Positions 15,762 through 47,398 of a stretch of 64,000 nucleotides of DNA are shown one piece after another. How positions within the stretch are numbered: the stretch's first letter is position 1; each line of letters starts with the position of its first letter. The notes under the pieces are model-generated. The model was not told the origin of the DNA. It was given only the letters and a program-made list of their open reading frames with translations, and did not search any database. Origin of the DNA: Alphaproteobacteria bacterium (GTDB lineage Bacteria > Pseudomonadota > Alphaproteobacteria > UBA828); assembly GCA_965221125.1 (NCBI GenBank), contig CBDCRW010000004.1:896001-960000 (forward strand), written 5' to 3'. The position numbers and the translations under genes are program-made.

Positions 15762-15837
15762 GGGCCGTTAGCTCAGTTGGTAGAGCACCTGACTTTTAAT
15801 CAGGTTGTCGAAGGTTCGATTCCTTCACGGCCCACCA
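15762..15837 (+). tRNA. tRNA-Lys (TTT)
   Basis: 76 nt; acceptor GGGCCGT/ACGGCCC, D arm TAGCTCAGTTGGTAGAGC, anticodon arm CCTGA-CTTTTAA-TCAGG, GGTTCGATTCC, encoded CCA. Confidence 0.97.
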
Positions 15838-16235: not shown

Positions 16236-16451
16236 CTACGACCGGGCCACGCCAGGCGACGCATCCCCGTGGCCACCACGCGCCCCCTTGCGGATACCCT
16301 CAACGCGCCCGACCAGCCCCAGAAGCCTCTCCTGACCGAATGCCCGGACGACCCCGTCGAAGAAGTCGGCATAGTCGAGTTCCTTCCGCCTTTCTTCCGA
16401 CGTCCTGTGCACCACCCGCCCGGCGACCGAGTATTCCGCCTCGCCCTTCAC
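16236..16451 (-). CDS. Small hypothetical protein
   Basis: 71-aa ORF with GTG start and purine-rich upstream tract. Confidence 0.3.
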   Translation of the reverse strand: MKGEAEYSVAGRVVHRTSEERRKELDYADFFDGVVRAFGQERLLGLVGRVEGIRKGARGGHGDASPGVARS

Positions 16452-16558
16452 ACTGATCCTTACCTTCTTCTCGTCGACCCGACAGAATTAGGACTTAGAG
16501 ATTTCTGTCTAAATCATTGATAACATTTATACTATCATCAGGCCTGGAACTTGCGTAC

Positions 16559-16602
16559 GCCTGACTAAAAGTCAGATGCTCTACCACCTGAGCTACGGGC
16601 GC
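16559..16602 (-). pseudogene. Degenerate tRNA-Lys(TTT)-like 5' half
   Basis: Minus strand reads GCGCCCG-TAGCTCAGGTGGTAGAGC-A-TCTGACTTTTAGTCAGG; T arm and 3' acceptor strand do not pair. Confidence 0.7.
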
Positions 16603-16769
16603 GCCTTGGCGCGGAACGATAGGGAGGGGCCGGCGGGGGGTCAAGCAATCGTCGCCCGACGGTGTCGTCGCTCGACAGTGTCGTCGCCGGCGCCCAGGCT
16701 CCCGCGCGTCGCCCGCCGTTTCGGCAACCACGCCGGGGTTGTAGAGTGTCACCGCCATGACGGACCTTA

Positions 16770-17035
16770 GCCCGCAATTCTCACCAAGGTCGCGGCCTGC
16801 GTCGTGCCCAGGCGTTCGATCCGCCAGGAGCGGGCCGAAAAGCGTATCGGGGAATACGGTTGAGGCCCGCGACGCCGCGGGCGGGCGCCTGGGCGCGACC
16901 CGGAGGGCGGCGCTCTCCGGCCCGCAGGGTGCGTCAAGGCGCTTACCCGATGTCCCCGCATCGCGCTGCGCGCCTTTCCTGCCCTGCGGGCCGGATAGCG
17001 CCGCGCAGACCATGACCTTGGTGAGAAATGCGAGC
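16770..17035. mobile_element. 266-bp MITE with ~32-bp imperfect terminal inverted repeats, TA duplication, inserted in the hisZ 5' end
   Basis: TA|GCCCGCAATTCTCACCAAGGTCGCGGCCTGCG ... CGCAGACCATGACCTTGGTGAGAAATGCGAGC|TA. Confidence 0.85.
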
Positions 17036-18191
17036 TAGGACACCGGCCCTGCTGCCGACGGGCCTGCGCGACCTGCTGCCGCCCGAGGCGGGCGCCGAGG
17101 CCGCGCTCGCCGAAGCCCTGCTCGGGCGCTTCGCGGGGCACGGCTACGAGCGGGTCAAGCCGCCGCTGGTCGAGTTCGAGGAGAGCATGCTGAGCGGCGC
17201 GGGCGCGGGCCTCGCCGACCAGACATTCCGCCTGATGGACCCGGCCTCGCACCGCATGATGGCCGTGCGCAGCGACCTCACGCCGCAGATCGCGCGCATC
17301 GCCGCCTCGCGGCTCGCGCGGAGCCCGCGGCCGCTCCGCCTCAGCTATGCCGGCGAGATCCTGCGGGCGCGTGGCGGCGAGCTGCGGCCCGAGCGCCAGT
17401 TCCGCCAGGTGGGCTTCGAGCTGATCGGCATCGGCGCGGGCGCCGCCTGCGACGCCGAGGTCATCCTGCTCGCGGCCGACGCGCTTGCCGGGCTCGGGAT
17501 CGAGGGCGGCCTCTCGGTCGATCTCAACGCGCCGACCCTGGTGGCCTCGCTCATCGCGGACGCGGGCCTCGACGCCGGGCGTGCCGGCCAGCTGCGCGAG
17601 GCCCTCGACCGCAAGGACAGGGCGGCGGTCGAAGGGATCGGCGGCGAGGCGGCAGACCTGCTCGTGCGCCTGCTGCGGACCACGGGCGTCGCCGAGACGG
17701 CGCTCGACGCGCTGGCGGCTCTCGCGCTGCCGGGTGCTGCAGCCAAGGCGCTCGCTCAGCTGCTGGAGGTGGCGACGCTGCTGCGCGAATCAGCGCCGGG
17801 GCTCGCGCTCACCATCGACCCCGTCGAGTGGCGCGGCTTCGAGTACCACACCGGAACCAGCTTCAGCCTGTTCGCCGGCGGCGTGCGCACCGAGCTTGGC
17901 CGGGGCGGGCGGTACGCGGTGGAGAGCGCCGGCGCGGACCCCGAGGACGCCGCCGGCTGCACGATCTATGTCGACACCGTGCTCCGCGCCGCGCCCGCGC
18001 CGCCTGCGCCCCGCCGGGTCTACCTGCCGCACGGCACGCCGCGAGCGGACGGCGCCGGGCTGCGCGAGGACGGCTGGGTCACGATCGCGGGCCTCGCGCC
18101 CGAGCCGGACTCCGCCGCCGAGGCCGCGCGGCTCGGCTGCAGCCACGTGTGGCAGGGCGGCAGCGCCCGGGCCGTCGCTGGAGAGGACTAG
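17028..18191 (+). CDS. hisZ: ATP phosphoribosyltransferase regulatory subunit
   Basis: [52 protein letters not shown]; directly upstream of purA. Confidence 0.92.
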
Positions 18192-18193
18192 CC

Positions 18194-19486
<1,293 letters not shown>

Positions 19487-19520: not shown

Positions 19521-19570
19521 TCGATCGCCCGGACGCGACGCAGGCCGTGGCCTTGGTGAGAAATACGGGC
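19521..19570 (-). repeat. Truncated copy of the left end of the 16770-17035 MITE
   Basis: Reverse complement reads TA|GCCCGTATTTCTCACCAAGGCCACGGCCTGCGTCGCGTCCGGGCGATCGA, close to 16768-16819. Confidence 0.8.
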
Positions 19571-47276: not shown

Positions 47277-47398
47277 CTCCGTTTCTCGTCACGGTCATGG
47301 TCTGCGCACCTCCCTGGCGTTCGATCAGCTGCCCGCCTGTCCCTCCCTGCGGGTCGAGCAGCGCCGCGCAGACCATGACCGTGGCGAGAGGCGCGGAG
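47277..47398. repeat. Internally deleted, degenerate relative of the 16770-17035 MITE
   Basis: Inverted pair CACGGTCATGGTCTGCGC / GCGCAGACCATGACCGTG; shares GGCGTTCGATC and AGCGCCGCGCAGACCATGACC with the MITE. Confidence 0.7.

Follow-up and report, generated by a model that had tools for sequence, protein, structure and literature searches.

A transposase-less repeat element within the first codons of hisZ carries an in-frame start codon and recurs at gene starts in an alphaproteobacterial genus

An element of the miniature inverted-repeat transposable type (MITE) lies within the first codons of hisZ, which encodes the regulatory subunit of ATP phosphoribosyltransferase, in Alphaproteobacteria bacterium (UBA828), and the end of the element carries an ATG in frame with the remainder of the gene. 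The window analysed comprises 64,000 nucleotides of contig CBDCRW010000004.1 (896,001-960,000), and positions below are given in window numbering unless a contig is named. The genome (G000) is 92% complete with a contamination estimate of 5.8%; it was compared with 20 other genomes of the same genus, and the search for HisZ was run over 40 relatives. The insertion, the empty sites in relatives, the geometry of stop and start, the recurrence of such insertions at other genes and the bias in their frame were observed directly. Taken as a whole, it is likely that the element-borne ATG would be used as the start of hisZ and would be served by translational coupling to a leader open reading frame (ORF), which runs from the native start codon through the entire element.

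The insertion at hisZ and the start codon it brings

Read across the start of hisZ, the sequence runs ATG (16757) ACG GAC CTT A, followed by the element (16770-17035) and then by TA GG ACA CCG GCC CTG CTG CCG. Counted together with the TA, the inverted repeat occupies 16768-16801 and 17004-17037 as imperfect arms of 34 nt which are 85% complementary. The sequence-only reading had called the insert a MITE with TA duplication, and this identification was borne out by the terminal inverted repeats (TIRs), the TA on both sides, the multiple copies and the lack of a transposase gene. As the insert (266 + 2 nt) shifts the frame, the host protein would be re-started from the element end and not read through. 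The hisZ copy differs from a 49-copy consensus at 14 positions, one of which falls in the last 3 nt of a TIR, and the median for the other copies is 15 positions. Dating of the insertion from these 14 differences was attempted and dropped, source-copy variation being inseparable from change after insertion. Two double changes private to this copy, at 16923-16924 and 16987-16988, read CG/CG against GA/TC in the consensus; pairing is kept and the changes are compensatory. No RNA family in Rfam matched within the element, the only matches being to a tRNA and a tRNA fragment upstream of hisZ.

All 17 of the hisZ loci recovered from the same genus (L032-L048) lack the insert. These loci read TAGAGTgtcaccgccATG, then four to five variable codons and CCG/TCG GCC CTG CTG CC, the encoded protein starting with variable residues followed by (P/S/R)ALLP.GLRD. 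They represent 17/20 of the other genus genomes, the remaining 3/20 having no match to the HisZ query used; with the same query G018, a genus member that is 99% complete, gave no hisZ match and only a weak HisS-like one. The closest HisZ of the genus (93% amino acid identity) begins MTDPKTPALLP, and contigs of related organisms from host-associated metagenomes join 16761-16766 directly to 17037-17039, reading MTDPRTP or MTDAKTP. Because the empty site is seen both in the 17/17 genus loci and in these contigs, the ATG at 16757 is, judging from the alignments, the native hisZ start, and it was at codons 4 and 5 that the element broke into the gene. The native start had been placed at this position by the sequence-only reading, which is upheld by the aligned ATG in every empty locus; neither the 266-bp insert nor a native start reading MRART was found in any of the 17. 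The same reading had reconstructed the pre-insertion N-terminus as MTDLRTPALLP. The empty site itself was reconstructed correctly; leucine at codon 4 has to be revised, as the residue there was more likely proline. Since relatives have NCC at codon 4 and the related contigs read CCC AGG, the sequence before insertion was probably CCT AGG (MTDPR) rather than CTT AGG (MTDLR), followed later by a single C>T change at 16767.

The right TIR ends in GGTGAGAA ATG CGA GC, followed by the target TA and then by GG. Its ATG, claimed earlier to stand in frame with hisZ at 17028, was found there both in the ORF table and in the sequence. A TGA at 17022-17024 (within GGTGAG) forms an in-frame stop two codons before this ATG and the next in-frame methionine is residue 54, well beyond the conserved ALLP.GLRD block, and ATG 17028 is therefore the only start available for a complete HisZ. 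The 3' end of the 16S rRNA of this genome, to which the Shine-Dalgarno (SD)-like motif of the TIR is complementary (Table 1), reads GGATCACCTCCTTTCT. The residues replaced by the insertion belong to the variable N-terminus of HisZ, before position 1 of the profile. For the 387-aa ORF the best profile was TIGR00443 (E 7.5e-65, residues 14-322), at 219 bits and thus below the curated cut-off of 271.65, and the HisZ orthologs of the genus are 77-93% identical to it. The PurA ORF follows only 2 nt past the hisZ stop, which supports the hisZ-purA operon proposed earlier.

A single copy of hisZ is present in this genome, and the sole hisG is of the short form (about 222 aa) and located beside hisD. 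Short-form HisG requires HisZ, and with one hisZ and one short hisG the function of HisZ should therefore matter in this organism. Along the hisZ branch, 19 synonymous and 5 non-synonymous changes were counted, compared with 20 and 7 in the sister branch, and the pairwise dN/dS against the closest relative is 0.19; by these measures hisZ is without sign of decay or relaxed selection. ATG 17028 is, as far as sequence comparison can tell, very probably the working start of the gene.

Table 1. Features at and around the hisZ insertion (window numbering)
Feature	Position	Strand	Remarks
Conserved block TTTCGG-N17-TAGAGT, candidate hisZ promoter	16719..16747	+	9 nt before native ATG
Native hisZ start codon, now leader-ORF start	16757..16759	+	aligns with ATG of 17/17 same-genus loci
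Leader ORF, 93 codons	16757..17038	+	native codons 1-4, whole element, TAG 17036-17038; no NCBIfam match
Left target TA	16768..16769		native hisZ codon 4 position 3 / codon 5 position 1
MITE without transposase gene	16770..17035	+	266 bp; repeat copies, TIRs, TA duplication
Left TIR	16770..16801	+	reverse complement GGTGAGAATTGCGGGC, outward TTG
Inner hairpin	16907..17004	+	arms 16907-16929 / 16982-17004, 96% complementary
Right TIR	17004..17035	+	bears SD-like motif and new start
GGTGA, SD-like	17020..17024	+	complementary to UCACC, 16S rRNA 3' end of this genome
New hisZ start codon from element	17028..17030	+	first start after in-frame stop; match to HisZ profile from residue 14 on
hisZ, ATP phosphoribosyltransferase regulatory subunit, intact	17028..18191	+	387 aa, profile match
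Right target TA	17036..17037		with G 17038 forms TAG stop of leader ORF
purA	18194..19486	+	NF002223, 641 bits, 1-429/430; 2 nt after hisZ stop

Recurrence of the element at gene starts and the frame of its insertions

The element belongs to a family that is represented in this genome by 11 full-length copies and a half copy, and in the genus by about 250 matches. Searches with the element gave 11 alignments longer than 150 nt (hisZ copy included), mostly at 81-92% identity with one at 71%, and 69 TIR-like sites were found at no more than 4 mismatches of 20. The family is present in 18/20 of the other genus genomes, and the TIRs are conserved across all copies. In relatives, 96 of the 129 TIR ends are flanked by TA; the base following the duplicated TA is G in 61 and A in 35 of these 96, and the base preceding the TA is mostly C or T. 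As read from these flanks, the target is a palindromic YTAR (CTAG-like) site with duplication of the TA. Duplication of all four bases of YTAR was considered and ruled out, as the base next to the right TA is A in 35/96 ends while that next to the left TA is the constant G of the element. No match to the DDE_3 transposase domain (PF13358) was found in this genome (92% complete); the domain was found in 16/20 relatives, and none of the 12 DDE_3 loci sampled there, out of about 150 matches, had this TIR at no more than 5 mismatches of 20. MITEs derived from IS630/Tc1-mariner elements share with the present family the TA duplication and the palindromic YTAR target and differ from it in that no parent element was found here; for lack of such a parent, the family looks IS630-like and is not filed as a proven IS630 member.

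Start replacement was assessed by translating the TIR ends outward and comparing the resulting N-termini with those of orthologs. Besides hisZ, three further cases were found in this genome, namely an mlaF-like gene for an ABC transporter ATPase, an ABC permease gene and an hdaA-like gene. In the mlaF-like gene a 293-nt copy is inserted at CC-TA-AG, and the protein, natively MSAPAN...NRPKIALRGL, would restart as MRVKIALRGL. The native start, which overlaps the upstream permease gene as ATGA and gives MSAPAN...NQPKIALRGL, is found in 13/13 of the genus relatives examined, and 0/13 carry the insert. In the ABC permease gene a 292-nt copy is inserted at AC-TA-AG, with MRAKTALQ as the restarted N-terminus; the native MTETALQ is found in one relative and in a paralog (98% identical) within this genome, and empty sites were seen in the paralog and in two relatives. 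The two permease copies (G000:C7:183133-184398 and C4:830826-832097), of which one has the element and the other does not, are 98% identical; the gene may have been duplicated recently, or the assembly may include a second strain.

The start of the single-copy hdaA-like gene is the ATG of a solo TIR, about 20 nt long, which immediately follows the TGA of the upstream gene (G000:C5:328264, L082/L185). A TGA stands two codons upstream of the ATG and no other start is available, where relatives read MAAKADLGRQRTF. The element body is gone, and the 3' end of the upstream gene is unlike that of relatives. In G004 a full element sits at a neighbouring codon of hdaA and gives MRANPGRQRTF, and the close relative G014 has the empty site; as the codons differ, the insertions of G000 and G004 look independent.

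Among the relatives, the 71 loci with 129 TIR ends included 10 clear start replacements (L102, L104, L105, L106, L107, L117, L118, L130, L141 and L162), 5 ambiguous cases and 5 in which the element was merely upstream. Together with hdaA of G004, at least 11 further start replacements are thus present outside this genome.

The frame of the TIR ATG relative to the neighbouring gene was then scored for outward ORFs that reached 100 codons and a GC3 of 0.85. For the 69 TIR ends of this genome, 7 such ORFs were in the TIR-ATG frame and 2 and 3 in the other frames; for the 129 ends of the relatives the counts were 20, 6 and 2 (binomial p 4e-5). In the out-of-frame cases the native start was further downstream or unclear, with no clear disruption. 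Target availability differs little between the frames, as YTAR sites in the coding DNA of this genome number 186 in the TIR-ATG frame and 221 in the alternative frame. The 13 in-gene insertions of the initial count were nevertheless all in the ATG frame, the chance of which is 0.457^13 or about 4e-5, and both hdaA cases bring this to 15/15. The simplest reading of this pattern is a selective filter, by which an insertion into the first codons is retained only where the TIR ATG takes over, and from which it would follow that the TIR ATG works. The genome-wide TIR search for an association with gene starts, which the sequence-only reading had put forward as a check, yielded three more start replacements in this genome and an in-frame excess of 7/2/3. 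Its further suggestion that the element ends act as portable start and stop modules gained support from the recurrence, from the ATG-frame in-gene insertions and from the A or G that follows the TA in 96/96 flanked ends.

Several TIR-like sequences were found that do not replace a start. Three TIR ends are in frame with the downstream gene and upstream of a plausible native methionine (C4:111190-111536, before an ilvE-like gene; C7:495638; C5:595582), and these may be N-terminal extensions or neutral insertions in the 5' untranslated region. Immediately upstream of zwf (G000:C6, before 429585), where G009 has a full element, there is a degenerate stretch resembling a TIR. Two nt beyond the full copy at C5:595275-595582 lies a mini-element of 40 bp composed of a pair of TIR-like ends; C5:247386-247425 has a comparable pair of 40 bp and C1:63577-63631 one of 55 bp, all in G000. 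Within the window, 47328-47389 (C4:943328-943389) is a partial match, at 84%, to the 3' part of the element.

The leader ORF and the use of the new start

The overlapping leader ORF noticed in the sequence-only reading was recovered in full, comprising 93 codons through the whole MITE with its TAG (17036-17038) just past the new start. This stop is formed by the duplicated TA and the following G and lies 8 nt after the A of ATG 17028. As the target is YTAR, a TAA or TAG directly after the element is guaranteed for any copy of length 3n+2 that is entered in this frame. The mlaF-like leader ORF has 114 codons and its TAA at +8 from the new ATG, and that of the permease gene ends at the TGA of GGTGAG, at -6. 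When 11 of the 13 start-replacing cases were scored, the leader ORF remained open to within 9 nt of the ATG in 8/11, compared with 42/125 of other element and orientation pairs (Fisher p 0.018). The transcript has a predicted fold of -207 kcal/mol (z = -12) in which the two TIRs pair, and the predicted probability that the SD-like motif and the AUG are unpaired is close to 0 in all three full-length cases of this genome. Removal of the 5' arm, comparable to its occupation by ribosomes, leaves the region around the hisZ start open in the prediction.

These features are consistent with the following course of events. A non-autonomous, TA-duplicating MITE inserted at a YTAR site across codons 4/5 of hisZ, and the end of its TIR brought with it an SD-like GGTGA and an ATG located 8 nt from the element edge, which is in frame with any gene having a codon that starts at the A of the target TA. 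HisZ would now start MRART instead of MTD(P/L)-RTPALLP. Ribosomes would initiate at the native ATG at 16757, which like the native promoter region is untouched, and translate 93 codons through the element, thereby melting the highly stable TIR hairpin in which the new start is otherwise predicted to be buried; they would then terminate at the TAG (17036-17038) and restart at ATG 17028, 8 nt upstream. On the basis of the geometry and the predicted RNA structure, it is somewhat favoured that the new hisZ start would be served mainly by such coupling to the leader ORF.

A number of observations weigh against this account. Leader ORFs stop earlier in 3/11 of the start-replacing copies (at -15, -15 and -167), so full read-through is not obligatory. 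An open entry frame is seen in most 266-nt copies, intergenic ones included, and is thus a trait of the family; when the window's own copy was shuffled, an open frame was expected in about 1/5 of shuffles in one orientation and in 4/100 in both, and on these grounds it need not be an adaptation. The solo-TIR start of hdaA implies that the ATG can work without leader ORF or hairpin, and coupling may be needed just as long as the hairpin exists. G014 has three start-replacing insertions which are lacking in G004, whose flanking gene is 96-98% identical, and in four other genomes, so that start-replacing insertions can be young, and the intact hisZ ORF and low dN/dS on a long branch say little on the time since insertion. 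The start replacements in relatives were classed by reading N-terminal alignments to the orthologs of this genome and not from gene calls. Finally, the contig that covers hisZ in the RNA library derives from a relative whose site is empty and provides no usable transcription evidence for the locus. No start-replacing insertion shared across species was found. Contigs of independent runs break at the repeat, none of them being seen to bridge the junction of element and hisZ, and a 25-nt junction pattern gave 0 matches in metagenome contigs.

Of the alternatives, the one that fares best, although it appears unlikely, is that the TIR ATG is a real start used independently of the leader ORF, either co-transcriptionally before the 3' arm pairs or after an RNase III cut of the TIR stem which would release a short-leader hisZ-purA mRNA. 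The complementarity of GGTGA to the 16S 3' end, the use by hdaA of a solo TIR and the three leader ORFs that end 15-167 nt before the ATG all agree with independent use, as does the processing of MITE hairpins by RNase III noted for Correia elements in Neisseria in a review by Delihas (PMC2229807). It is opposed by the predicted burial of SD and AUG in the full transcript, by the recurrence of the 8-nt overlap of stop and start and by the enrichment of read-through copies among start-replacing insertions.

It was also considered that a recent insertion had knocked out hisZ, the in-frame ATG being a coincidence and the organism importing histidine. Insertions of this family can indeed be young, and the runs containing this stretch are mostly host-associated metagenomes, which makes auxotrophy conceivable. 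Coincidence, however, sits poorly with 15/15 in-gene insertions in the ATG frame against a prior of 0.46, and a knockout sits poorly with the intact ORF and its 19 synonymous to 5 non-synonymous changes, with the retention of short hisG and hisD, and with an hdaA that has no alternative start; this explanation was accordingly judged improbable. A DNA on/off switch, in which hisZ works only after precise excision and the assembly represents a majority 'off' state, is highly improbable: TA-duplicating elements are able to excise and empty-site joints do occur in metagenome contigs, but the contigs with these joints show further differences and stem from diverged relatives, a search of this genome (92% complete) turned up no DDE_3 transposase, and the hisZ copy has its 14 differences from the consensus, the one in the last 3 nt of the TIR among them.

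With respect to the surroundings of the gene, no SD-like motif precedes the native hisZ ATG, and the conserved TAGAGT 9 nt upstream is suggestive of leaderless mRNA. The block containing it (cgtttcgg...ctgtaRagtRtcRccgccatg) is conserved in the same-genus loci L032-L046 and is a candidate hisZ promoter that would give a leaderless or very short-leader mRNA. A simple consensus scan of the plus strand from 16400 to 17200 called no sigma-70-like site or terminator, this conserved block included. In relatives a tRNA-Lys gene on the opposite strand lies about 130 nt upstream of hisZ, and hisZ would therefore head its own unit. Where relatives have this intact minus-strand tRNA-Lys, the present genome has a truncated tRNA-Lys(UUU) fragment (16552-16602, minus strand; Rfam tRNA 27.5 bits, just below threshold), and an intact tRNA-Lys is found on the opposite strand about 0.8 kb away (15762-15837, plus strand), which suggests a rearrangement or integration event at the tRNA-Lys gene upstream of hisZ. 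On the other side, a solo remnant resembling the right TIR (19521-19570), flanked by TA and with ATA in place of ATG, is located 35 nt past the purA stop, and the hisZ-purA pair is thus bracketed by element ends.

Relation to known elements and significance

Start codons at the ends of such elements have been noted before. For MITEAba12 of Acinetobacter, the authors remarked on terminal start codons, and in three records the adjacent gene takes its four opening residues (MQQS) from outward-reading TIR nucleotides (Adams and Brown 2019, PMC6382973), a TIR-borne start for a neighbouring gene being what is seen here at hisZ. As described there, MITEAba12 has a minimum of two stops in each of the six frames, its hairpin is weak (-24 to -27 kcal/mol), and expression is put down to an outward promoter; not described for it are a leader ORF read through the element, a stop formed from the duplication over the start, proof by empty sites and frame statistics, all of which the present family has. 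The REP2 repeats of Neisseria and the IR repeats of Borrelia are promoter-bearing and lie upstream of genes (Delihas 2011, PMC3184786). REP2 provides an earlier instance of repeat-borne starts and in this resembles the present element. The REP2 and Borrelia repeats, however, are without TIRs and their mobility is not demonstrated, whereas the present element has TIRs and sits inside the first codons; REP2 also carries a promoter, and a simple sigma-70 consensus scan detected none in the element described here. The Rickettsia palindromic element (RPE), the enterobacterial repetitive intergenic consensus (ERIC) and the 107-bp Correia element are MITEs with open frames that are tolerated within protein-coding genes (Delihas 2008, PMC2229807). 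The fusions they form are translated within the host protein, in contrast to the element in hisZ, which shifts the frame so that the protein would be re-started from the element end.

With regard to mechanism, coupling by termination-reinitiation or by unmasking of a structured start is well established for overlapping operon genes and for phage MS2. The arrangement at hisZ resembles these cases in having a stop within a few nucleotides of a start and a buried start which, as predicted here, would be opened by upstream translation; it differs in that all the parts come ready-made with a mobile element and the target duplication it causes. In the literature covered, which excludes subscription journals, no described case was found that combines a leader ORF, a duplication-derived overlapping stop, proof by empty sites and a genus-wide frame bias. 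It is this combination that would be new here, TIR-borne starts as such being already known from MITEAba12 and REP2.

A more far-reaching interpretation, offered only tentatively and regarded as doubtful, is that the family has evolved as a 'stop-restart cassette', with a length of 3n+2, an entry frame open in both orientations, outward SD-like motifs with ATG/TTG/GTG start codons 8 nt from each element end, and a built-in TAA/TAG. If this were true, insertions in first codons and operon junctions would be nearly harmless and the safe target space of the element would be wider, and N-termini would be rewritten, with solo TIRs left as permanent initiation regions of essential genes, such as hdaA here.

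For the family as observed, empty sites and frame statistics indicate that a bacterial MITE can occupy the starts of housekeeping and essential genes (hisZ, hdaA and ABC transporter genes) without destroying them, because it supplies its own stop and restart signals. One class of insertions regarded as 'gene-disrupting' would then be silent or do no more than retune expression, and automated annotation may misplace starts or call pseudogenes at such sites. The element would represent a natural and compact coupling cassette that is testable with reporters, and through it mobile DNA would have a definite means of creating new N-termini and ribosome-binding sites.

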